A DNA stretch of 64,000 bases from Eledone cirrhosa. Lineage: Eukaryota. The stretch is taken from the NCBI GenBank assembly GCA_964016885.1, contig OZ024741.1:14508001-14572000 (forward strand). The letters are read 5' to 3'. A program made the position numbers and the translations under genes. Below the pieces are notes generated by a model. That model saw only the letters and a list, made by a program, of their open reading frames with translations. It did no database searches and had not been told where the DNA came from. This document shows positions 12,275 to 61,631 of this stretch, in pieces; within the stretch, counting starts at the first letter, position 1, and every line of letters starts with the position of its first letter.

Positions 12275-15200
12275 TTGAGAGTTGGCTGTTTGAACGCGCG
12301 TGGCCTGGGCTCAGCTTGGAAGCAAGCAAAGCTTCTAAGTGACCTCAGGTCACAAAGTATAGATGTGATGGTTGTTTGCGAGAGTCGGATCAGCAGCGTG
12401 AGACAGCTGGCGCCCGCCTTCGATGACTTTGAGATGCACGCATCTCTCTGTCAACCCGGAGGCGGGGGGGGGGGGGGAGTTGCCGTACTGCTGGATAAAC
12501 GTCTGACTCTCGACGTACAGATTGTTCACTCGGACCCAGGGGGTCGATTACTGGTGCTGGACGTCGGAGGCGGTGAAGGCGGGCTTTCAGACTGGTCGGT
12601 CTTTATGCTCCCTTCGGGGCGGAAAGAGCCGACTTCTTCCAGCGTCTGGAGACTTTTCTAGGAACGTCGCGTTCCCTGCTTTTAGTGGGGGACTGGAATG
12701 GAATCCTAGATGCGCGTTGGGACTATGCAGGGGCATGTCCCGATAGAGGGGGGTGTAGCAGCCTCAAGGGGTTACTCGATCGATTCGACCTGGTCGATAG
12801 ATTTCGACTAGATTGTCCAACTGCGCCAACCTGGACCTGGGCAAACCGCAGTGGACAATCTAGATCGTACCTAGATAGGTTTTTGGTTAGGAGTAAGGAT
12901 AGGGACGTATTTAGTTGTCCAGAACTGATCATGGTTGGCTATTCAGATCACAAATTAGTGACCTGCGTGGTCAACCTTGATAGAACGCATAGACAGGGTC
13001 CCGGTTACTGGAAGATGAACTTGTCCTTGCCGACAAAGAAAGATTACAGAAACCGGATTAGTAGCTTAGTTAAGATGCGGTTGACGGGAGCGATCGTCAA
13101 CAGTAGGTGGTGGGTATCTCTAAAGAGAGAGATTAGAGTAAGTTCGATAGGTTACAGTAAGGAACTAGCGGCGAATAGAAATAGGAAGGAAAGGGAGTTA
13201 ACAGATAAACTAGAAGAGGCGATTAGGAGCGGAGACGTAGCCAGAGTGTTAGCGGCGAGAACGGCGTTGAGCCAGTTCTTTGACGCGAAGCACGAAGGCT
13301 GCGTTGTCCGAAGTAAAATACGTGCTTTAGGAAACGAGGGGACCAAAGCTGTTAGCTAGGCCCGCGTGACAGAAGCCAAGAGTGGGATTAAATCCACCAT
13401 TCGGTCTTTGCGAGACCAGGATGGACGGGTGATCCTTGAACCTGAGCGAATGTGCGAGGCCTTTCAAAGGCACTTTGCTCGACTGTTCGGAGGTGGCGGG
13501 GGGCCGGACGGGGATGTGGACTTCGGTCCATACCTCGACGGTCTACCGCGTCTTTCGAGCGGCGAAGCGGAGTGCGGCGAAAGGCCAATCACAGCCACTG
13601 AAATCGGGGAAGCGCTCAGCCAATGCAGCAGACGCAAATCCCCGGGTCGCGATGGTCTACCATACGAACTTTATTTAGCTATGCCGGTCTTGTTCTCCGA
13701 ACTCCTCGAGGCTGTCTATTGCAACTGGCAACAGAACGGGAGAATTCCCTGTTCTGTGACCAAGGGCGTGGTCACGCTAGTGAGGAAGGACGAGAGCAAG
13801 GGGGACGACTTAAGTAACTTTAGGCCCATAACTCTGCTGAATGCAGAGTTACAGATTTTGGCCAAGGTGTTGGCGAAGAGGTTGGCGCTTGTGGTGGGTG
13901 GTTTGGTGGGAGACGCGCAGACATGCGCTATCCCGTCCAGGTCCATTCACGACAACCTCCGCCTCATGCGATACATCATAGAGAGGGTTGGCTACGAACC
14001 CGGCTTTGGTGGGGCCCTGATCAACTTGGATCAATCTAAGGCGTTCGATAGGGTCGACCATGGTTACCTGGATGCGGTGCTAGCGGCGGCGGGCTTCGGA
14101 CCCGTTTTCAGGGGCTGGATTTCTGCCATGCACAGTGGCAACATCTACTCTAGGATTAAAGTAAACGGCTACCTCTCGGAGCCGTTTCAAATCACCCAAT
14201 CCATCAGACAGGGGTGCCCCCTCTCCTCCCTTCTGTATGTATTGACTCTCGAGTCACTGCTGCGGAAGTTGGAGTTGCTGCGGGGCATACCCCTGGAACC
14301 GGGATTACACAAAGCGGTCTCGGCCTATGCCGACGACGTAACAGTAATGGTGGCGGACGCCTCGGAAATCGGGGCGATCGCCACCCTACTGGAGGAATAC
14401 GAAAGGCTGACGGGGGCTAAGCTGAACCAGGACAAGTCAGTCGGTTTGCAACTCGGAACGTGGAGGGGCAAACCGATGCCGTTAGACGGTGTCGTCGGGC
14501 GGTGGACGGAGGGCCCGGTGAAGCTGCTCGGGGTCTGGTTCGGACCGGACCTCCAGGTGGAGAAGAATTGGGGCGAGGTGACGAGTAGGGTGTTTGCGCT
14601 GACCCAGAAGTGGGCCAAGTGCAAACTATCACTGAAAGGTCGGGCGGAGGTGACGAACGCTTACATAGCGTCCGTCATCTACTACCGCCTGACCGTCGTG
14701 CCTTGCCCCAAGGAAAAGCTCACCATCATGGAACGCATGCTCTTCCAGTTCCTCTGGAAGAAGCGGCCTCCCATGGTGAGGAGATCCATCTGCTGCCAGC
14801 ACCCTTCGAAAGGAGGGCTGGGTATGCCGTGGCTGTTGATGCGTAGGCACGCATTGAGGCTACGGCATCTACAGGTATTACTCAACGGTCAGCCGGTGTG
14901 GGCCCCGTTTGTGAGGCGAGCCTTCCCACAGCTCGTCTCGCTCACCGAACTGCAATCCTGGGTGAAGCAAAGACCGAGAAAACTGGGCAACTGGCACACC
15001 GAGTGTGCCCAGGCGCTCACGGCTATCTGGCAAGCGGACCCGACTGTCAGTGGAGAATCCACCTCGACATTCTATAGAGGGTTGGTGGCTAGCAGGGGCG
15101 ACGACACCCTTGGAGAGTCGCTAGGCATGGAGGAGGACGAACTGGCCAGCCTGTTCGGTAGAACTTTCGGCCCGGGACCCATGGACAACTTCCAGAGGTC

Positions 15201-15708
15201 CCTAGCCTGGCAGTGTTACCGGGGTGCTCTGCCCGTTCGAGAAAAGCTCTACAGACACGGGCGCCCGGGCAGGGATCCCGCGAAAAAGATCTGTCCCAGA
15301 TGCGTGCGCGACGAGGAAACCGTTGCGCATGCACTGGTACACTACCCGGGCGTTGCCGATCTGTGGGGTTACGTCGAACGACAGCTGTCGCGTGTGGCGC
15401 CGATTCGATTAACCGCCGAGTCTGTGGTGAACATCAAGCCGCCTCCTCCCTTCAGAAATGAAGCAGAGGCGGTCTTTCTGTGCGTAATAGCCATGATGAA
15501 AGAGGTTGTGTGGTGGACGCGCCTGAAAGGTCTGAGGTCGGGTGACTTTCTCTCCGGCCATCACCTGGTTTACTTCTTCCGATACCACTTCGGAAGAAGG
15601 ATCAGGATGGAGAGAGAAGTGCTTGGTCCCAGACAGTTTTATGAAAGGTGGGTGAAAGAAGCGAGAATGGCCCGTGTAAATGGGCCTTCTCTCTACATTG
15701 TTCTGTAG
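12275..15708 (+). pseudogene. Tx1-like ORF2: AP endonuclease + reverse transcriptase; frameshift near 12590 and stop at 13357
   Basis: LNARGL, GDWN, YLDRFLV, SDHKLV; FRPITLLN, LDQSKAFDRVDH, RQGCPLS, AYADD; C-terminal CPRC...H. Confidence 0.9.
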
Positions 15709-20120: not shown

Positions 20121-20580
20121 AGTTAAAAGAATGGAGGTGTAACACACAAGTTATTATATATTGGTAAACGGAATAGAAAATGCTGACAAATTGTTCACAG
20201 TTGAAAAATGGTTTAATTAGGAATAAAAGAGTATTAGTGATTGTATTGGTTAGTATTCAGTTGTGGTTTTAAGTTTTTAAGTTTTTACCGGTTGCGCATT
20301 TCTAAATGCTTTTCAAAAATAATTTTGAGATAGAGTGTCGCGTGCTGTTTGCTCTGATCTCAGCAAACAGCACGGACACTGATCAGAGCAAACAGCACGG
20401 ACACTCTATCTCAAAATTATTTTTGAAAAGCATTTAGAAATGCGCAACCGGTAAAAACTTAAAAACTTAAAACCACAACTGAATACTAACCCATACAATC
20501 ACTAATACTCTTTTATTCCTAATTAAACCATTTTTCAACCTGTGAACAATTTGTCAACATTTTCTATTCCGTTTACCAAT
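20121..20580. mobile_element. Foldback element with U3-A8 HHR-like motif (20282-20320 -, 20419-20457 +); duplicate at ~22399-22855
   Basis: ~200-bp inverted arms, ~35-nt tail on the left, (TA)n flanks; TTGAAAA gcattt-ag-aaatgc GCAA CCGG TA. Confidence 0.75.
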
Positions 20581-20648
20581 ATATATATATATATATATAA
20601 AAATATATATATATAAAAATATATAAAAATATATATATATATATAGAG

Positions 20649-22403: not shown

Positions 22404-22903
22404 AAAGAATAGAGGTGTAACACACAAGTTATTATATATTGGTAAACGGAATAGAAAATGCTGACAAATTGTTCACAGTTGAAAAATGGTTTAATTAGGA
22501 ATAAAAGAGTATTAGTGATTGTATTGGTTAGTATTCAGTTGTGGTTTTAAGTTTTTAAGTTTTTACCGGTTGCGCATTTCTAAATGCTTTTCAAAAATAA
22601 TTTTGAGATAGAGTGTCCGTGCTGTTTGCTCTGATCTCAGCAAACAGCACGGACACTGATCAGAGCAAACAGCACGGACACTCTATCTCAAAATTATTTT
22701 TGAAAAGCATTTAGAAATGCGCAACCGGTAAAAACTTAAAAACTTAAAACCACAACTGAATACTAACCCATACAATCACTAATACTCTTTTATTCCTAAT
22801 TAAACCATTTTTCAACTGTGAACAATTTGTCAACATTTTCTATTCCGTTTACCAATATATATATATATATATAAAAAATATATATATATAAAAATATATA
22901 AAA

Positions 22904-23471: not shown

Positions 23472-23520
<49 letters not shown>

Positions 23521-23545
23521 AGAAAAACCACCTTTTGAAAACTCA

Positions 23546-23583
23546 CCTTTTGAAAAGCAGAAGAACTGCGAAACCGGTAAAGG
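23546..23583 (+). ncRNA. Minimal type I HHR, U3-A8 core variant, in a ~220-bp element between (TA)n runs
   Basis: cctt TTGAAAA gcag-aagaa-ctgc GAAA CCGG TA aagg. Confidence 0.7.
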
Positions 23584-23730
23584 AACCAAATAAATATATA
23601 TATTTAAAAAAAGAAAAAAAAAAAAAAAAAAATAAGACTTCAGTTGCATTTTCGATTTCATCCTTTTTCTTTATACTTCCACTCGTGTAGGACACCTCGG
23701 TTATTTTTCATTTTGTAAAAAAAACCTCAC

Positions 23731-23781
<51 letters not shown>

Positions 23782-24002: not shown

Positions 24003-26518
24003 AATGTAGGAGGTGAGTTTAATTGTAGTACAATAAAGCAATGCAGATATCGGATAAGAAGCACTCTACAGTTTGTAGGACTGGAGTATACATAATATAT
24101 AAGATCAAAAGATGGTTAAATGAGTTCCATGTATTTTATTATGCGCATTTCAAAAACAAATATCATCATGCAATAACATTTGTGTTTTCATCAGATAAAA
24201 TAGGAGGACATGATATGAAGGTTAAAAACACTTGTGGATAGTGCAGTTTTAAATCAACATATGAAAAGTAGTTTTAGATTGATGTGTGATATTGGCTAAA
24301 AAAAATTTTTTTTTGAGGGGGGGGGGAAGATGAAAAGAGGAGGAGATGAGAGTAAAAAGTGGAGGGGGAGGAGTATAAGGAGGAAGGATGAGATAGGAGG
24401 AGAGATGGCTGATAGAGAGAGAGAGATAGCTTTTATAACTGAGAAAAATATATTGTTTTACATAGAGAGGTTGAAAAACCGTTGGAAGATAATGTATAAA
24501 TTAAAAGAATTGAAAATTAACGAAGAGAAAAATAATGTAAAGTTAAGGTTTGTATATTGAAGGGTTTAATATGTGCGATGAAAAGAAATTGTTAATATGT
24601 ATTAAGAATAATATTTAAGGGTTTAATAATATGTGCGATGGAAAGAAAATGTTAATATGTATTAAGAATAATTTTAAGGGTTTAATAATATGTGCGATGG
24701 AAAGAAAATTGTTGATATGTATTATTAAAAAAACAGAAGTAATGTAAGTAAGGATATATTGTGAGATGAGCATGAATAAGTTAGATGAAAGTGAGAAAAA
24801 AATAATGAATAGAGGATGAATAATCTAACGTAAAAAAAAATGTTTATGTTTACGAAGGATTTTTTCAAGGTCATATAAAGTTAGAATATAGTGTATTGTG
24901 TAATAATTGTTTCTATGTTAGGCACAGTGAGAAAAGGTACAGATTAGGGGTTAGAAATTAAAAGAAAAAGAAAAGAAAAGGAAAAGGAAGAAAGGGAAGT
25001 GATGAATAGGAATGATATAGAATATGATAAATAACTTTGAAATAAGGTAGAAAGATGGGTATATTTTTAAAGAAGTATATATATATATATATATATATAG
25101 ATAGATATGTGCCTTTGAGAAAAGGATTCTGAATTGATAAAGTTTAGGATATTAGCTGTATACTTTATGGAAAGTTCTGTGGAATTTATGCAAGCAGATA
25201 GAAAACAAGTCAGTGCGTCTATTTATTATAGAATCTATTTACTATCTTAAATTGCAACATAGTTAACCTTAATATTATTAAGAACAATATACGTAATCTC
25301 TTTAACCAACATAACCTAAAAATTGAATTTGATAACAGCATCAAACTAGCTAATCTCTTGGGTGTATCTCTTAATCTTGACACTGGCCTATATTACCCTT
25401 ACCATAAAAACAATGAGAACCTAAATTATGTTAATTTTAAATCTAACCACCCTACTAATATTAAGAATGCTATAGTTAGTAATATTGGAAAAAGAATATC
25501 TAACCTATCTTCTAATAAAAACATCTTCGATGCTAACGCCAATTACTATAATAACGCGCTTTCTAAAGCCGGCTATCCCGATAAAATCAAATATAATAAA
25601 GAAACAAATTCTAGAAAATCTTACAGTAGAATAATTAATCATGATCATTCCAATAACTTTAATAAAAGACCTAGATACAAAACATAATCTGGTATAATGC
25701 TCCTTTCTCCATCTCTATTAATAATAATATTCCTAAATTATTCTTTAGTGCCTTAAATAAATGCTTCCCTCCCTCACATATCTATAGTAAAATATTTAAC
25801 AAACACACTATCAAATTTTACTATTCGACATCCTTCAACATTTCCAACATCATCTCTAAACACAACAATAAAATACTAAATACTAAATCTCTTCCTTCCA
25901 ACACTGAATATCATAATAATAGTAATAGTACTCCCGACGTCATTGTAAACCCTAGGCTAATTTCTGCAAACCCAAATACAACGTCAAACACAACTTCGCT
26001 AAATGTTCTTAATCCCATTCTAAATCAAGAAAATATTATTCCTATCGCAAATAACTTCTCCAATCCAATTCCTTCTATAGATAACACTAGGTCACTCGTT
26101 AATAATCTCTCTAATCGCAATTGCAATTGCCCTGCTAAAAATAAATGTCCTCTCAACAACCATTGTCTTGATAAAAACTTAATTTATGAATGTAAAGTTA
26201 TAACTGACACCAATTCCTTCACCTATTTTGGTTCAACTTCCACCAATCATCATTCGTCTTTTAAATATAAACTTAAAAGAACCAACACGGCTCTCTCAGG
26301 ACTCATATGGTCCTTGAAAGACAAAAATATTAAATATAACATCTCTTGGAAAAATCTCTGTCTGAATGAAAAATTTACCATTATATCTAATTTAGATTCT
26401 ATAATAAATAGAGGCACTGACTTGTTTTCTATCTGCTTGCATAAATTCCACAGAACTTTCCATAAAGTATACAGCTAATATCCTAAACTTTATCAATTCA
26501 GAATCCTTTTCTCAAAGG

Positions 26519-26597
<79 letters not shown>

Positions 26598-27572
26598 TTC
26601 TTTAAACATATACCCATCTTTCTACCTTATTTCAAAGTTATTTATCATATTCTATATCATTCCTATTCATCACTTCCCTTTCTTCCTTTTCCTTTTCTTT
26701 TTTTTTATTTTAATTTCTAACCCCTAATCTGTACCTTTTCTCACTGTGCCTAACATAGAAACACTTATTACACAATACAATATATTCTTACTTTATATCA
26801 CCTTGAAAAAATCCTTCGTAAACATAAACATTGTTTTTGACGTTAGATTATTGATCCTCTATTCATTATTTTTTTCTCACTTTCATCTAACTTATTCATG
26901 CTCATCTCACAATATATCCTTACTTACATTACTTCTGTTTTTTTAATAATACATATCAACATTTTCTTTCCATCGCACATATTATTAAACCCTTAAAATT
27001 ATTATTAACATTTTCTTTCCATCGCACATATTATTAAACCCTTAAATATTATTCTTAATACATATTAACAATTTCTTTTCATCGCACATATTTAAACCCT
27101 TCAATATACAAACCTTAACCTTACATTATTTTTCTCTTCGTTAATTTTCAAATTCTTTTAATTTATACATTATCTTCCAACGGTTTTTCAACCTCTCTAT
27201 GTAAAACAATATATTTTTCTCAGTCATAAAAGCTATCTCTCTCTCTCTATCAGCCATCTCTCCTCCTATCTCATCCTTCCTCCTTATACTCCTCCCTCTC
27301 CACTTTTTACTCTCATCTCCTCATCTTTTTCATCCTTTCCAACCTCCCCACCTAAAAAAAAAATTTTTTCCCCAATATCACACATCAATCTAAAACTACT
27401 TTTCATATGTTGATTTAAAACTGCACTATCCACAAGTGTTTTTAACCTTCATATCATGTCCTCCTATTTTATCTGATGAAAACACAAATGTTATTGCATG
27501 ATGATATTTGTTTTTGAAATGCGCATAATAAAATACATGGAACTCATTTAACCATCTTTTGATCTTATATAT
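24003..27572. mobile_element. 5'-truncated, head-to-head Penelope-like (Hydra-clade-like) insertion, second subfamily
   Basis: Minus arm 24003-25238 (3' UTR + ORF end); plus arm 25239-27572 (decayed ORF from FTILNCN + 3' UTR); homologous to 36491-43610; HHRs 24133-24201 (-) and 27466-27534 (+). Confidence 0.9.
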
Positions 27573-31794: not shown

Positions 31795-31809
31795 CATATA
31801 TATATATGT

Positions 31810-32040
31810 AAGAAAATGAGTTGTTTTTTTTCTAAAGAAAAAAATGAAATGTCCTACACGATTGAAAGTATAAGGAAAAGAAATTGAAAATGCAACTGGA
31901 GTCTTTTACGAATAGTTATTTATTTACTTTACCGGTTTCACAGTTCCTATGATTTTCAAAATTGAGATGGAGGTTTTGTGTTTCTGTTGTGGTTTGTCTC
32001 GCATCAGATACGAGACAAACCACAACAGAAACACAAACCC
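31810..32040 (-). mobile_element. Diverged copy of the 23518-23735 U3-A8 HHR element, ending in a ~32-bp foldback (31972-32040)
   Basis: gtcctacacg..aagtataa..gaaaatgcaactg shared; minus strand TTGAAAA...ctgt GAAA CCGG TA at 31926-31962. Confidence 0.65.
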
Positions 32041-36494: not shown

Positions 36495-37662
36495 GGAGGT
36501 GAGTTTTATTGTAGTACAATAAAGCAATGCAGATATCGGATAAGAAGCACTCTACAGTTTGTGGGACTGGAGTATGCATAATATAAGATCAAAAGATGGT
36601 TAAAGGAGTTCCATATATTTTATTATGCGCATTTCAAAAACAAACATCATCAAGCAATAATATTTGTGTTTTCATCAGATAAAACAGGAGAACATGATAT
36701 GAAGGCTAAAAAAACACTTGTTGATAGTGCAGTTTTTAATCAACATATGAAAAGTGGTTTTAGATTGATGTGTGATATTGGGAAAAATATTTTATTTAGA
36801 GAGGGGGGGGGAGGATGAAAAGGGAAGGAGATGAGAGGGAGAGATGGGTGATAGAGAGAAAGAGATAGTTTTTATAACTGAGAGGAGATATATTTTTTAC
36901 ATAGAGGGGTTGAAAACCGTTGGAAGATACTGTATAAATTAAAAATTTTGAAAATTAACGAAGGGAGGATATGTGCGAGGAAAAAATATTTTATTTAGGG
37001 AGCGGGGGGGGATGAAAAAAAGGGGGGAGGAGATGAGAGTGAAGGTGGAGAGGGAGAGATGGGTGATAGAGAGAAAGAGATAGTTTTTATAACTGAGAAA
37101 AAGATATATTGTTTTAATATAGAGAGGTTGGGAACCGTTGGAAGATAATGTATAAATTAAAGGAATTTGAAAATTAACGAAGGGAAATTATGTATGAAGA
37201 TAGAGAGAAAAAAATAATAATTGTGGGTGAATATTCTAACGTCAAAAGAAGAAATGTATGTATTGTGGCAATTTCAAAATTAGCGAAGAGAAAAAAAAAT
37301 GTTAAGGTTTGTGTGTAGAAGGATTTGAGAAAAATAATGTGAAGTTAAAGTTTGTATATTGAATTGATATGTATTAATAATGAGTTCGTTGATGGGGAGA
37401 AAAAAATAATAATAAATTAAGGATGAAATTGAGATTAAAAAGATTTATGATAGAGAGAAAAAATAATAATGATTGCGGATGAATATTCAAAATGTCAAAA
37501 ACAAATGTTATTATTTTACGAGAAGATAGAATGAGGGTAATGAGTAAACGAGTATTATAGAGTGTATAATGCCCTTTAAAGTAAGGTAGATGGGTATATT
37601 TTAAAGAGGTGTATGTATATGTGCCTTTGAGAAAAGATTCTAAATTGATAAAGAATTGAATA

Positions 37663-40065
37663 TTAACTGTATACTTTGTGAAAAGTTCTATGGAATTTAT
37701 GCAGGCAGATAGAAAACAAATCTGAGCGTCTATTTATTATAGATTCTAGGTTAGAGATAATGGTAAATTTTTCATTTAGGCAAATATTACAGATTTTAGA
37801 TAGAGAGCTGTTCAAGTATGAGGATGCAGAAGAAATCTTTTTCCAAAAGATGTTATATTTAATGTTTTTGTCTTTTAAGGACCATATGAGTTCTGAGAGA
37901 GCAGTGTTAGTTCTTTTAAGTTTGTATTTGAAAGATGAATGATGATTATAGAGACGAGCTTTAAAAGAGGTGGAAGTGGAGCCAAAATAGGTGAAGGAAT
38001 TGGTGCTAGTTATAATTTTACATTCATAAATTAAGTTTTTATCGAGGCAATGGTTGTTGAGAGGACATTTATTTTTAATGCGGCAGTTGCAATTAGAGAG
38101 ATTATTAATGAGTGATCTAGTGTTATCTATAGAAGGAATTGGATTGGAGAAGTTGTTTGCGATAGGAATAATAGGAATAATAGTTTCTTGATTTAGAGTT
38201 GGATTATGAACATTTAGCGAAGTTGTGTTTGACGTTGTATTTGGGTTTACAGAAGTTTGCCTAGGGTTTACAATGACGTCGGGAGTACTATTACTGTTAT
38301 TATGAAATTCAATATTGGAAGGAAGAGATTTAGTATTTAATATTTTGTTGTTGTGTTTAGAGATGATGTTGGAAATATTGGAGGATGTAGAATACGAAAA
38401 TTTGATGGTGTGTTTGTTAAATATTTTACTATAGATATGTGAGGGAGGGAAGCATTTATTTAAGGCATTAAAAAATAATTTAGGAATATTGTTATTAATA
38501 GAGATGGAGAAAGGAGCATTATACCAGATTATGTTTTTGTATCTAGGTCTTTTATTAAAATTATTGGAATGGTCATGATTAATTATTCTACTGTAAGTTT
38601 TCCTAGAATTTGTTTCTTTATTATATTTGATTTTATCTGGATAGCCGGCTTTAGAAAGTGCGTTATTATAGTAATTGGCGTTAGCATCAAAGATGTTTTT
38701 ATTAGAAGATATGTTAGATATTCTATTTCCAATATTATTAACTATAGCATTCTTGATATTGGTAGGATGGTTAGATTTAAAGTTAACATAATTAAGATTC
38801 TCATTGTTTTTATGGTAAGGGTAATATAGGCCAGTGTCAAGATTAAGAGATACATCCAAGAAATTAGCTAGTTTGATACTATTATCAAATTCAATTTTTA
38901 GGTTATGTTGGTTAAAGAGATTACGTATATTGTTCTTAATAATATTAAGTTTAACTATATTGCAATTTAGGATAGTAAAGAGTCCATCGTCACGATAAAT
39001 TCCACCGCGAAGTTGAGGAATTTTCCGACTCAAAGAGTTCAAAATGAAGATACCAATTAAATCAGTCAATTGGGATGAATCGGATGCTCCCATTGTGATG
39101 TCGAAGTTGTTAGAGGTATCGGCTCTGGTCCAATATTCGTTGTTGAACTCTAGGATGGTTTTACGTGCGGTGAGGATAATGTGAAGTTCATCTGTGGTGA
39201 TGTCAGAATATTTAAGTGCGAAAGATAGAGCATTATTGAGAAGTGAAGGCGAAATGGAGGAATAGTAGCTGGCAATATCGAATTGAATAAATTTTAGTTT
39301 GTTTTTATTATCCAATTTGTTGAACCAGCCAATCACTTCAGAAGTACCAAACCATAAATTTAGGTTTAAAGAAGAGCAATTAGAACTAACCTGTGGGATA
39401 ATCCTATCCAAGATGGCTTTACTAACAACCCCCAGATCAGATTTAGAGGGGGCGATTAATCTAACAGATAGTTCAGTGCGAAAATTGTTTTTGTGATCCT
39501 TGAGATTTATCCTCGGAGTTCTTGGGAGGAATGGTTCGGTCTTTTTTTCAATGCCAAGTTTTGACATAATCTCATAGGCTTCAAGGTTTATGCATTCTAA
39601 ATTTTCATGGTTGGTTTTACGATACTTTTTCCTAAGTTCCTTTAGGATAAGGTTGTTATAATTATCCTTGGAAATACCATATAGGTTATTGGTTTTGTCA
39701 GAGTGGACTAAAACATTTTTTGAGGAATTTAGGTTAGAGATTGTGTTCTTGAGATTTACAAGGTGCTCTTGTCCTTTGTAAGGGTATCTCTTGAATTTAA
39801 GATGTTTTATTATTTTAGTTAATTCTTCCTCGAATTGTGCTAGATTTTTGTTGGAAGGAGGATTTCGTCTAGAATTAAAAAGATGATCGAGGAAGTTGTG
39901 TTCTTTGGTATGAAAGTTCCCTTTTAGGCGCTGGTCATAGAAATAGGCTGTCCATCTAAGTCTTCTTACGAAGGAGTCAGTTTTTTCAATAAGGAGTTTG
40001 GCGAATTCGGATTTACTAGGTATAGGAATGTCTTTAGTTGAATTGGTTATGTTGTAATAATCCAT
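37663..40065 (-). CDS. Intact ~800-aa PLE protein: RT + CxC/Cys linker + C-terminal GIY-YIG endonuclease (Hydra-clade-like)
   Basis: KDIPIPSK...LRW N-terminus; FIQFDIASYY, ITMGA, IYRDDGL, NFLDV; CNC-x5-CPL-x3-C; LIY..YFG, R..H; CNICLNEK; likely ATG at 40065 (frame open from 40125). Confidence 0.92.
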   Translation of the reverse strand: MDYYNITNSTKDIPIPSKSEFAKLLIEKTDSFVRRLRWTAYFYDQRLKGNFHTKEHNFLDHLFNSRRNPPSNKNLAQFEEELTKIIKHLKFKRYPYKGQEHLVNLKNTISNLNSSKNVLVHSDKTNNLYGISKDNYNNLILKELRKKYRKTNHENLECINLEAYEIMSKLGIEKKTEPFLPRTPRINLKDHKNNFRTELSVRLIAPSKSDLGVVSKAILDRIIPQVSSNCSSLNLNLWFGTSEVIGWFNKLDNKNKLKFIQFDIASYYSSISPSLLNNALSFALKYSDITTDELHIILTARKTILEFNNEYWTRADTSNNFDITMGASDSSQLTDLIGIFILNSLSRKIPQLRGGIYRDDGLFTILNCNIVKLNIIKNNIRNLFNQHNLKIEFDNSIKLANFLDVSLNLDTGLYYPYHKNNENLNYVNFKSNHPTNIKNAIVNNIGNRISNISSNKNIFDANANYYNNALSKAGYPDKIKYNKETNSRKTYSRIINHDHSNNFNKRPRYKNIIWYNAPFSISINNNIPKLFFNALNKCFPPSHIYSKIFNKHTIKFSYSTSSNISNIISKHNNKILNTKSLPSNIEFHNNSNSTPDVIVNPRQTSVNPNTTSNTTSLNVHNPTLNQETIIPIIPIANNFSNPIPSIDNTRSLINNLSNCNCRIKNKCPLNNHCLDKNLIYECKIITSTNSFTYFGSTSTSFKARLYNHHSSFKYKLKRTNTALSELIWSLKDKNIKYNIFWKKISSASSYLNSSLSKICNICLNEKFTIISNLESIINRRSDLFSICLHKFHRTFHKVYS

Positions 40066-40155
40066 GTTGTAGAAGAAGAGGTGAAGGACCATCAAAAGGT
40101 ATCCAATATGAGAGTAAGCGCTCAACCGTTAAGGAGCAAGTTAATGTAGGAGGTG

Positions 40156-42525
40156 AGACATTCCTATACCTAGTAAATCCGAATTCACCAAACTCCTTAT
40201 TGAAAACACTGACTCCTCCGTAAGAAGACTTAGATGGACAGCCTATTTCTATGACCAGCGCCTAAAAGGGAACTTTCATACCAAAGAACACAACTTCCTC
40301 GATCATCTTTTTAATTCTAGACGAAATCCTCCTTCCAACAAAAATCTAGCACAATTCGAGGAAGAATTAACTAAAATAATAAAACATCTTAAATTCAAGA
40401 GATACCCTTACAAAGGACAAGAGCACCTTGTAAATCTCAAGAACACAATCTCTAACCTAAATTCCTCAAAAAATGTTTTAGTCCACTCTGACAAAACCAA
40501 TAACCTATATGGTATTTCCAAGGATAATTATAACAACCTTATCCTAAAGGAACTTAGGAAAAAGTATCGTAAAACCAACCATGAAATTTAGAATGCATAA
40601 ACCTTGAAGCCTATGAGATTATGTCAAAACTTGGCATTGAAAAAAAGACCGAACCATTCCTCCCAAGAACTCCGAGGATAAATCTCAAGGATCACAAAAA
40701 CAATTTTCGCACTGAACTACCTGTTAGATTAATCGCCCCCTCTAAATCTGATCTGGGGGTTGTTAGTAAAGCCATCTTGGATAGGATTATCCCACAGGTT
40801 AGTTCTAATTGCTCTTCTTTAAACCTAAATTTATGGTTTGGTACTTCTGAAGTGATTGGCTGGTTCAACAAATTGGATAATAAAAACAAACTAAAATTTA
40901 TTCAATTCGATATTGCCAGCTACTATTCCTCCATTTCGCCTTCACTTCTCAATAATGCTCTATCTTTCGCACTTAAATATTCTGACATCACCACAGATGA
41001 ACTTCACATTATCCTCACCGCACGTAAAACCATCCTAGAGTTCAACAACGAATATTGGACCAGAGCCGATACCTCTAACAACTTCGACATCACAATGGGA
41101 GCATCCGATTCATCCCAATTGACTGATTTAATTGGTATCTTCATTTTGAACTCTTTGAGTCGGAAAATTCCTCAACTTCGCGGTGGAATTTATCGTGACG
41201 ATGGACTCTTTACTATCCTAAATTGCAATATAGTTAAACTTAATATTATTAAGAACAATATACGTAATCTCTTTAACCAACATAACCTAAAAATTGAATT
41301 TGATAATAGTATCAAACTAGCTAATTTCTTGGATGTATCTCTTAATCTTGACACTGGCCTATATTACCCTTACCATAAAAACAATGAGAATCTTAATTAT
41401 GTTAACTTTAAATCTAACCATCCTACCAATATCAAGAATGCTATAGTTAATAATATTGGAAATAGAATATCTAACATATCTTCTAATAAAAACATCTTTG
41501 ATGCTAACGCCAATTACTATAATAACGCACTTTCTAAAGCCGGCTATCCAGATAAAATCAAATATAATAAAGAAACAAATTCTAGGAAAACTTACAGTAG
41601 AATAATTAATCATGACCATTCCAATAATTTTAATAAAAGACCTAGATACAAAAACATAATCTGGTATAATGCTCCTTTCTCCATCTCTATTAATAACAAT
41701 ATTCCTAAATTATTTTTTAATGCCTTAAATAAATGCTTCCCTCCCTCACATATCTATAGTAAAATATTTAACAAACACACCATCAAATTTTCGTATTCTA
41801 CATCCTCCAATATTTCCAACATCATCTCTAAACACAACAACAAAATATTAAATACTAAATCTCTTCCTTCCAATATTGAATTTCATAATAACAGTAATAG
41901 TACTCCCGACGTCATTGTAAACCCTAGGCAAACTTCTGTAAACCCAAATACAACGTCAAACACAACTTCGCTAAATGTTCATAATCCAACTCTAAATCAA
42001 GAAACTATTATTCCTATTATTCCTATCGCAAACAACTTCTCCAATCCAATTCCTTCTATAGATAACACTAGATCACTCATTAATAATCTCTCTAATTGCA
42101 ACTGCCGCATTAAAAATAAATGTCCTCTCAACAACCATTGCCTCGATAAAAACTTAATTTATGAATGTAAAATTATAACTAGCACCAATTCCTTCACCTA
42201 TTTTGGCTCCACTTCCACCTCTTTTAAAGCTCGTCTCTATAATCATCATTCATCTTTCAAATACAAACTTAAAAGAACTAACACTGCTCTCTCAGAACTC
42301 ATATGGTCCTTAAAAGACAAAAACATTAAATATAACATCTTTTGGAAAAAGATTTCTTCTGCATCCTCATACTTGAACAGCTCTCTATCTAAAATCTGTA
42401 ATATTTGCCTAAATGAAAAATTTACCATTATCTCTAACCTAGAATCTATAATAAATAGACGCTCAGATTTGTTTTCTATCTGCCTGCATAAATTCCATAG
42501 AACTTTTCACAAAGTATACAGTTAA
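40156..42525 (+). pseudogene. Inverted copy of the PLE ORF lacking the first codons, with a 1-nt deletion near 40585
   Basis: Starts at DIPIP; catgaaattt versus catgaaaattt; the 634-aa ORF differs only by S>P. Confidence 0.9.
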
Positions 42526-43503
42526 TATTCAATTCTTTATCAATTTAGAATCTTTTCTCAAAGGCACATATACATACACCTCTTTAAAATATACCCATCT
42601 ACCTTACTTTAAAGGGCATTATACACTCTATAATACTCGTTTACTCATTACCCTCATTCTATCTTCTCGTAAAATAATAACATTTGTTTTTGACATTTTG
42701 AATATTCATCCGCAATCACTATTATTTTTTCTCTCTATCATAAATCTTTTTAATCTCAATTTCATCCTTAATTTATTATTATTTTTTTCTCCCCATCAAC
42801 GAACTCATTATTAATACATATCAATTCAATATACAAACTTTAACTTCACATTATTTTTCTCAAATCCTTCTACACACAAACCTTAACATTTTTTTTTCTC
42901 TTCGCTAATTTTGAAATTGCCACAATACATACATTTCTTCTTTTGACGTTAGAATATTCACCCACAATTATTATTTTTTTCTCTCTATCTTCATACATAA
43001 TTTCCCTTCGTTAATTTTCAAATTCCTTTAATTTATACATTATCTTCCAACGGTTCCCAACCTCTCTATATTAAAACAATATATCTTTTTCTCAGTTATA
43101 AAAACTATCTCTTTCTCTCTATCACCCATCTCTCCCTCTCCACCTTCACTCTCATCTCCTCCCCCCTTTTTTTCACCCCCCCCCCGCTCCCTAAATAAAA
43201 TATTTTTTCCTCGCACATATCCTCCCTTCGTTAATTTTCAAAATTTTTAATTTATACAGTATCTTCCAACGGTTTTCAACCCCTCTATGTAAAAAATATA
43301 TCTCCTCTCAGTTATAAAAACTATCTCTTTCTCTCTATCACCCATCTCTCCCTCTCATCTCCTTCCCTTTTCATCCTCCCCCCCCCTCTCTAAATAAAAT
43401 ATTTTTCCCAATATCACACATCAATCTAAAACCACTTTTCATATGTTGATTAAAAACTGCACTATCAACAAGTGTTTTTTTAGCCTTCATATCATGTTCT
43501 CCT

Positions 43504-43572
43504 GTTTTATCTGATGAAAACACAAATATTATTGCTTGATGATGTTTGTTTTTGAAATGCGCATAATAAAAT
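43504..43572 (+). ncRNA. HHR in the PLE 3' region (mirror copy 36617-36685 -)
   Basis: gttttat CTGATGA [~16-bp stem II] GAAA T-GCGC-A TA ataaaat. Confidence 0.85.
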
Positions 43573-43603
43573 ATATGGAACTCCTTTAACCATCTTTTGA
43601 TCT

Positions 43604-45100
<1,497 letters not shown>

Positions 45101-60156: not shown

Positions 60157-61631
60157 CTTAATTGTTTAAGCGTCAGTCATACAAAAGTGAGTTACAAACG
60201 AAACGAAATTTAATTTCGTTTCGTTATTTGTTTTTATCGTCTCCGTTGAACCGGTACTTACTCACACTCTATGCAAATTAGTCTGCCCACTACTAATTTT
60301 CATAGAAAAAGCATATAACGATATGTGCTTTTACGATTCTCTAGAGAGGCCGGAAGATAGGTAAATATTGCTGATGAGTTGTAACAACAACGAAACTAGT
60401 TCAATATTCCTTGTCTGGCTTTCTGGAGAATAGAGGAGAGGTGTTTCCTCAAAAACCAGTATGACTCTAAAAACCGGTTTGTCTGTGTGTTTACATACAG
60501 AATAGCTGGCCACTCACAGTAAAGTGACCAGTGAAAAAACTTGGTACACCTACATATGTATACGTGTGTGTATTCATATACATACTAGTATTTCAGTATA
60601 CATATATGGATGTACATCTTTAACTTAATTGTTTAAGCGTCAGTCATACAAAAGTGAGTTACAAACGAAACGAAATTTAATTTCGTTTCGTTATTTGTTT
60701 TTATCGTCTCCGTTGAACCGGTACTTACTCACACTCTATGCAAATTAGTCTGCCCACTACTAATTTTCATAGAAAAAGCATATAACGATATGTGCTTTTA
60801 CGATTCTCTAGAGAGGCCGGAAGATAGGTAAATATTGCTGATGAGTTGTAACAACAACGAAACTAGTTCAATATTCCTTGTCTGGCTTTCTGGAGAATAG
60901 AGGAGAGGTGTTTCCTCAAAAACCAGTATGACTCTAAAAACCGGTTTGTCTGTGTGTTTACATACAGAATAGCTGGCCACTCACAGTAAAGTGACCAGTG
61001 AAAAAACTTGGTACACCTACATATGTATACGTGTGTGTATTCATATACATACTAGTATTTCAGTATACATATATGGATGTACATCTTTAACTTAATTGTT
61101 TAAGCGTCAGTCATACAAAAGTGAGTTACAAACGAAACGAAATTTAATTTCGTTTCGTTATTTGTTTTTATCGTCTCCGTTGAACCGGTACTTACTCACA
61201 CTCTATGCAAATTAGTCTGCCCACTACTAATTTTCATAGAAAAAGCATATAACGATATGTGCTTTTACGATTCTCTAGAGAGGCCGGAAGATAGGTAAAT
61301 ATTGCTGATGAGTTGTAACAACAACGAAACTAGTTCAATATTCCTTGTCTGGCTTTCTGGAGAATAGAGGAGAGGTGTTTCCTCAAAAACCAGTATGACT
61401 CTAAAAACCGGTTTGTCTGTGTGTTTACATACAGAATAGCTGGCCACTCACAGTAAAGTGACCAGTGAAAAAACTTGGTACACCTACATATGTATACGTG
61501 TGTGTATTCATATACATACTAGTATTTCAGTATACATATATGGATGTACATCTTTAACTTAATTGTTTAAGCGTCAGTCATACAAAAGTGAGTTACAAAC
61601 GAAACGAAATTTAATTTCGTTTCGTTATTTG

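Follow-up and report, generated by a model that had tools for sequence, protein, structure and literature searches.

What is the motif at 23546-23583, whose core reads UUGAAAA where a hammerhead ribozyme would have CUGANGA, and what carries it? The window analysed here is a 64,000-nt stretch of Eledone cirrhosa DNA, and a sequence-only reading had described this segment as a hammerhead with a UUGAAAA core, GAAA, CCGG and a 4-bp stem I. The letters match that description. From stem I to stem II they run CCTT (23546-49), TTGAAAA (23550-56) and GCAG-AAGAA-CTGC (23557-69), followed by GAAA, CCGG, TA, with A17 at 23579, and AAGG (23580-83), which places the predicted cut at 23579/23580. The relevant features of the window are as follows.

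23546-23583, plus strand: minimal type I hammerhead of family A with a U3-A8 core, as read from the letters
23516-23747, plus strand: solo pLTR stub of the family A Penelope-like element, 86% identical to the full element L139
31926-31962, minus strand: degenerate U3-A8 hammerhead (core 31959-31930) of subfamily C, which is older and belongs to A's lineage
31799-32004, minus strand: solo pLTR stub of subfamily C, 74% identical to A and 85% to L078
20420-20456, plus strand: family B hammerhead with U3-A8, C13 (GCAA) and a 3-bp U-A stem I
20283-20319, minus strand: family B hammerhead, inverted partner of 20420-20456
20159-20581: two family B pLTR stubs placed back to back, one on the minus strand (20159-20360) and one on the plus strand (20381-20581)
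22437-22857: second back-to-back family B pair, with hammerheads at 22561-22597 (minus) and 22697-22733 (plus)

Six U3-A8 matches were found in the window, versus one across 300 doublet shuffles of it. A GCAA site proposed at 20419-20457 is present and is one of four family B copies; the pair at 22437-22857 is part of a local duplication of ~2.2-2.3 kb and is hence not independent of that at 20159-20581. The U3-A8 frame proposed at 31926-31962 was likewise found, but on the minus strand, which the earlier reading had left unstated, and in a degenerate copy with U-U at 10.1-11.1, two further pairs in stem II and a 2-bp stem I. All window copies of the U3-A8 Penelope families are short pLTR stubs of ~200 nt; the one around 23546-23583 extends from about -40 to +178 relative to U3 and has (TA)n on either side. 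As had been anticipated, such variants are invisible to searches for CUGANGA: an Rfam search of the window (E up to 1) recovered none of the six U3-A8 copies, but did list the canonical ones at 60353-61358 as HH9, with 37.7 bits where the gathering score is 52.

The search of the entire genome that the same reading had suggested was run on the animal's own 3.0-Gb assembly with the frame TTGAAAA-N10-16-G[AC]AACCGGTH, and its counts cover motifs with the CCGG palindrome and 10-16 nt of stem II. It returned 29,884 matches versus 7 for the reversed pattern, and the same frame with another base at position 7 gave 2,454 versus 21 for its reversed control. Watson-Crick pairs at 3-8 thus account for 32,338 U-A and 21 C-G motifs, as compared with 329 unpaired or wobble states (128 U3-G8, 201 C3-A8). 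U3-A8 is thus the inherited state, and the latter make up ~1%, the level to be expected of post-insertion mutation. Family B (GCAA) contributes 12,215 matches, and a 23-mer downstream of the hammerhead counted 17,716 family A copies. The practical lesson is that CUGANGA and Rfam scans overlook this genome's dominant hammerhead class, which outnumbers C3-G8 by the above 32,338 to 21 in this frame.

Full elements were reached by tracing copies upstream, and the motif is the terminal-repeat (pLTR) hammerhead of an endonuclease-bearing Penelope-like retroelement. The full element L139 has the following order.

4181: hammerhead
4380-5579: ORF1, 400 aa, starting ~200 nt past the hammerhead, with no Pfam match
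5492-7816: ORF2, 775 aa, with Pfam matches to RVT_1 (E 1.3e-6, just under the cut-off) and GIY-YIG (E 2.1e-6)
8870: hammerhead, separated from ORF2 by a microsatellite-rich 3' UTR of ~1 kb and followed by (TA)n

The GIY-YIG motif of L139 ORF2 has two cysteines inside (IYAIKCKGCNEDYIG), as in EN+ Penelope elements, and ORF2 also contains a linker finger, CGRSNCGTC, of the CX2-5CxxC type common to Neptune and Nematis. The lineage may be of Neptune type, a tentative label, given a tree that contained only RTs other than the named reference elements. The overlap of ORF1 and ORF2 is a T-TTT-TTA slippery heptamer (L139:5505-5520; L416) that is kept in families A and B and would suit a -1 frameshift into ORF2. 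In each of families A and B, 27 of 30 endonuclease loci have the motif at most 1.5 kb downstream, and the linked family B motifs comprise 26 with GCAA and one with GTAA. The hammerhead-bearing pLTRs occur as partial tandem or inverted copies with a (TA)n target; the head-to-tail non-coding array of a non-LTR retrozyme was not seen, the window copies being stubs, solo or inverted, that derive from a coding element. Mean divergence of intact ORF2 frames was 0.47% in family A (20 frames) and 0.29% in family B (nine frames), values that describe a young subset and not the age of all copies, since the frames were chosen as best matches. The lineage is very abundant and recently active. The original proposal is supported in that the motif is a natural minimal type I hammerhead with U3-A8, its helix III is palindromic, and mobile elements carry it.

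The window holds further repeats. Another Penelope-like family, arranged back to back and with a C-terminal GIY-YIG-like part, occupies 24132-27535 and 36616-43573, the latter with ORFs at 37663-40128 (minus) and 40157-42525 (plus). At its ends lie hammerheads with the canonical CUGAUGA core, in which stem II is long and the palindrome is UGCGCA, at these positions.

24132-24202, minus strand: CUGAUGA hammerhead
27465-27535, plus strand: CUGAUGA hammerhead
36616-36686, minus strand: CUGAUGA hammerhead
43503-43573, plus strand: CUGAUGA hammerhead

The 821-aa frame of this family had no Pfam match, and a 'Naiad-like' label for its ORFs was withdrawn because the nuclease-like part is C-terminal. 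The HH9 hits correspond to three canonical hammerheads at 60364-61342, spaced by 467 nt in a retrozyme-like tandem. Three canonical-core hammerheads with a U-U stem II start and a CUAG palindrome lie at 43952-44731, two on the minus strand in tandem, 476 nt apart, and one inverted. A non-LTR retrotransposon at 10400-15708, presumably Tx1/L1-like, consists of an upstream ORF and an apurinic-endonuclease/RT frame in pieces, and a tandem array of ~129-nt units at 2998-5586 is open as an 862-aa plus-strand frame.

Conservation of the motif relative to its flanks, which had been named as a check, was evident, with core and helix III kept while the flanks drift. Between the majorities of A and subfamily C, none of 17 sites in core and helix III changed, versus 9/40 and 54/144 in the two flanks; between A and B, the corresponding values were 1/17 versus 15/41 and 69/137. 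Comparisons with family D majorities gave 2-3 changes in 18 core and helix III sites, partly due to N7 and alignment gaps. In stem II, family A has G-C at 10.4-11.4 where family B has U-A, and N7 varies between A, U and C. Further U3-A8 families in the genome (D1, D2, D3 and E) have other stems and U or C at N7; the stems of E differ altogether (GATTG/CAATC and AATAT/ATATT), and stem II starts with U10.1-U11.1 in families C and D. To judge from these alignments, stems I and II are maintained by paired changes. The core bases U4 G5 A6, A9, G12 A13 A14, the pair A15.1-U16.1 and H17 are all present in families A, C, D and E, and family B has C13 instead of A13. In structure prediction, the ACCGGU duplex of helix III reached -8.3 kcal/mol, and stems II and I of the family A copy had pairing probabilities of 0.91 and 0.65, respectively. 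Stem I comprises 1-3 bp in most in-genome families, with a predicted probability near 0 in 8 of 12 U3-A8 examples folded as monomers, and its fourth pair is broken in about half of the family A depth in Logan contigs.

The pair at 3-8 was also followed outside this genome: a scan that left both positions unconstrained was run over 97 Penelope loci taken from public contigs. These relatives were gathered with an alignment query (a single-protein query gave none), motif and ORF were linked by proximity only, and the records with bacterial labels probably stem from binned DNA of animals or other eukaryotes. Penelope RTs filed under bacterial symbiont or MAG names (P0012, P0038, P0042, P0058; L399-L415) are, in the same line, likely host DNA in bins. 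The motif was found at 39 of the 97 loci, and every one of the 39 had a Watson-Crick pair at 3-8: 32 C-G, five U-A, one A-U and one G-C. The last two are single copies of well-formed minimal hammerheads beside a Penelope RT on public contigs, with A3-U8 at L363:1969-1999 (plus strand; ATGAGTA) and G3-C8 at L369:117-151 (plus strand; GTGAACA). All four Watson-Crick pairs at 3-8 therefore appear, from these motifs, to be used by natural Penelope hammerheads. The open literature yielded no natural A3-U8 or G3-C8 but an engineered variant (PMC3884650); figures and most subscription papers lay outside this search.

The sequence-only reading had further suggested that the variant was used repeatedly, in at least two families. 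This was not confirmed. Over 212 nt, the 31926-31962 copy shares 74% identity with family A, and B aligns with A through the pLTR (72% over 125 nt), their ORF2 proteins being 55% identical. In a quick maximum-likelihood tree of 44 RT rows, computed with SH-aLRT support and without bootstrap, the six in-genome U3-A8 rows (A, two of B, two of D1, and D2) form one clade (SH-aLRT 97), so that the swap was inherited once among the families sampled here and not used repeatedly. The labels of in-genome rows L075, L288 and L280 come from their family or from a further scan, not from the strict one; the tree does not include L126, the 58 loci that lack a motif, or, with fewer than 250 aligned residues, L327 and the L080 family, nor D3 and E, whose retrieved copies had no linked ORF. 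The nearest neighbours of the clade are five relatives, of which four have C3-G8 and one has U3-A8. Taken across all its rows, the tree requires six changes for U3-A8, at least five of them forced by well-supported branches, indicating that the swap arose several times among Penelope elements at large. L126, a family copy with C3-G8, was rejected as an ancestral relic, as it is not separable from a double mutant, and the apparent variant loci L130 and L133 were junction artefacts. A related Penelope family (L080:5724, G000:C1), with a nuclease 45% identical, carries a CUGAAGA core and a GUAC palindrome 400 nt behind its ORF.

If the hammerhead cuts, its activity might be visible in where copies end. 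We examined 30 family A copies picked only by the 23-mer downstream of the hammerhead, some of which are two arms of one insertion. The 5' start lay upstream of the core in 23/30 cases, 12 of which fell between -39 and -42, and a single copy started at +31, where the cut is predicted; 28/30 of the 3' ends fell at +109 or at +175 to +179. In public (Logan) contigs, whose variant and end profiles pass over the family A cut site as repeat sequence, the 5' edge was the same and the two 3' ends ran into (TA)n. Genome-wide, 182 family A starts were counted at +29 to +31 (~1% of ~17,700 copies), the neighbouring windows +22 to +24 and +35 to +37 having 119 and 110, respectively. The same junction count in family B gave 99 (~42 of them, by hand count, an extra copy of a 7-nt repeat) versus 29, and in both families these counts mix in point deletions and slippage duplications. 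Given the like excess in family B, the family A excess was not counted as a cut footprint; the start excess in both families points to A-run microhomology. Neither the 30-copy ends nor the genome-wide junction counts contained a clear genomic footprint of cutting. A candidate intron from CCG/GTAAAG within the hammerhead to an AG ~100 nt downstream was rejected, with no spliced copy and only two microhomology deletions elsewhere.

Overall, we assign a probability of roughly 80% to the reading that this is a minimal pLTR hammerhead of an endonuclease-bearing Penelope-like lineage in which U3-A8 became fixed for C3-G8, with self-cleavage that is likely slow, dimeric and probably protein-assisted. 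Judging from DNA ends only, transcription would start near -40, which would leave the hammerhead within 70 nt of the RNA's 5' end. By pairing via the ACCGGU palindrome, two copies could then form helix III and undergo a slow dimer-type cut after A17 that most templates would escape. Reverse transcription may be primed from nicked (TA)n at internal sites of the RNA (+109/+178), so that mostly uncut RNA would be copied, giving stubs and back-to-back pairs such as those in the window; cleavage would then likely not be needed for each insertion.

The competing explanation that survives best is that of a former ribozyme that cuts in none of these families, its fold being kept as a protein-binding site or as part of an internal promoter just past the start. 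Family B lends it some weight, lacking A13, having a 3-bp U-A stem I and preferring another hairpin, yet reaching over twelve thousand matches (the 12,215 above) with intact ORFs 0.29% apart, and so do the missing cut footprint in copy ends and junction counts and the Anolis element, whose hammerhead mutants, in the accessible part of the report, leave in vitro insertion unaffected (PMC11167929). We nevertheless consider this explanation unlikely: a DNA promoter would need neither paired changes in stems I and II, nor a free N7, nor strict 3-8 pairing (39/39), the 3-8 pair forms in the active fold, and every catalytic-core base is kept in families A, C, D and E. That the back-to-back copies are instead terminal inverted repeats of a small DNA transposon, resembling hammerheads by chance, draws on the divergent inverted pairs common among copies but is scarcely credible, as the sequence runs collinear with an RT/GIY-YIG reading frame at 54/60 loci and flanks that frame in direct tandem on both sides, inverted pairs vary in spacing between ~20 bp and several kb, their two arms stop unevenly, at +109 or +178, the stems covary, and the linked ORFs already refute it.

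Returning to the pLTR hammerhead with inherited U3-A8, family B departs furthest from the consensus. Changes of A13 strongly lower hammerhead activity. The base belongs to the hammerhead consensus core (PMC3088659, in the portion available), and its replacement by C13 is likely derived, given that B groups with D and D has A13. The 31-nt motif of family B shows no substitution of at least 2% in four public runs, as opposed to about two dozen flank positions that do; these runs are labelled as three organisms, two being under other organisms' names and maybe representing close kin or mixed DNA. Between the B1 and B2 majorities, 4/40 and 31/135 flank sites differ, compared with only a loop indel and an A-run gap in the motif. 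Its best predicted fold is a competing hairpin, and the 3-bp U-A stem I is weak. Neither a natural C13 variant nor a report of A13C cleavage was found in the open literature (figures and most subscription papers were outside the search), and the passages available from PMC6155905 and PMC11014351 contain nothing on A13 substitutions. C13 is the only part of this case that a specialist might find new. Tentatively, and with more doubt than trust, we read B as a spreading Penelope family that lost A13 beyond U3-A8 while its motif stayed constrained, so that C13 either still cuts, probably with protein assistance, or serves a non-cutting role, and we extend the same caution to the set of four Watson-Crick pairs at 3-8. 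If true, families A (GAAA) and B (GCAA), both intact in one genome, offer a natural pair for asking what Penelope hammerheads do, a question that their coexistence makes cheap to address at the bench.

Our literature search on octopus Penelope hammerheads found nothing on this family. The view that U3-A8 is unusual in mobile families has to be given up, as natural U3-A8 is described in PMC3088659, 5/39 outside Penelope hammerheads carry it, and it has been in print for Penelope hammerheads since 2014, making the present case a further example. In the parts available, Cervera and De la Pena (2014) report U3-A8 covariation in Cercyon Penelope-like elements of Schistosoma mansoni, with a descriptor, ~1,300 matches and low dimer activity (PMC4209133); cores in the supplement include UUGAUAAA and UUGAAAAA. 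Shared with the present lineage are the U3-A8 core in pLTRs, mostly solo copies, a palindromic helix III for dimer folding, and opposite-strand pairs, 100-700 bp apart in Cercyon, that are like the inverted pairs here. In contrast to Cercyon, there are ~32,000 matches here, helix III has a 4-nt CCGG insert, families A and B have no unpaired base before stem II, and family B has GCAA where the extracted column of their figure S3 holds only GAAA. The natural variants of Perreault et al. (2011) include, besides U3-A8, the U10.1-U11.1 stem II start also seen in families C and D, as well as C6, insertions after 6 and 13, and U15.1-A16.1, with no substitution at 13 in the text portion at hand (PMC3088659).

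Poseidon PAc of Anolis carolinensis (Frangieh et al. 2024), as far as the accessible text goes, has a hammerhead that cuts only with protein in vitro, an AT-rich target, and an RT that starts at two internal sites, so that the tail is optional, the latter two as here (PMC11167929). Uncut RNA is its main template, with no reads at the cut site in the passages available, which matches the copy ends described above. PAc differs in its C3-G8 core, its single ORF and RT starts that are not homologous to the target, whereas both 3' ends here lie on TATA inside the element and continue into (TA)n. Animal non-LTR retrozymes (Li et al. 2026, bioRxiv 10.64898/2026.07.22.740005, in part) likewise use a type I hammerhead derived from Penelope pLTRs, in their case within a short non-coding unit and in head-to-tail arrays, unlike the dispersed or inverted stubs of a coding element found here. 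The overall organization agrees with that of Neptune/Nematis-type EN+ elements as outlined by Craig et al. (2021; PMC8557442, available portion), which likewise combine an RT with a C-terminal GIY-YIG, a CCHH motif and a CX2-5CxxC finger with a (TA)n target, a frameshift-separated ORF1, and tandem and inverted pLTRs.
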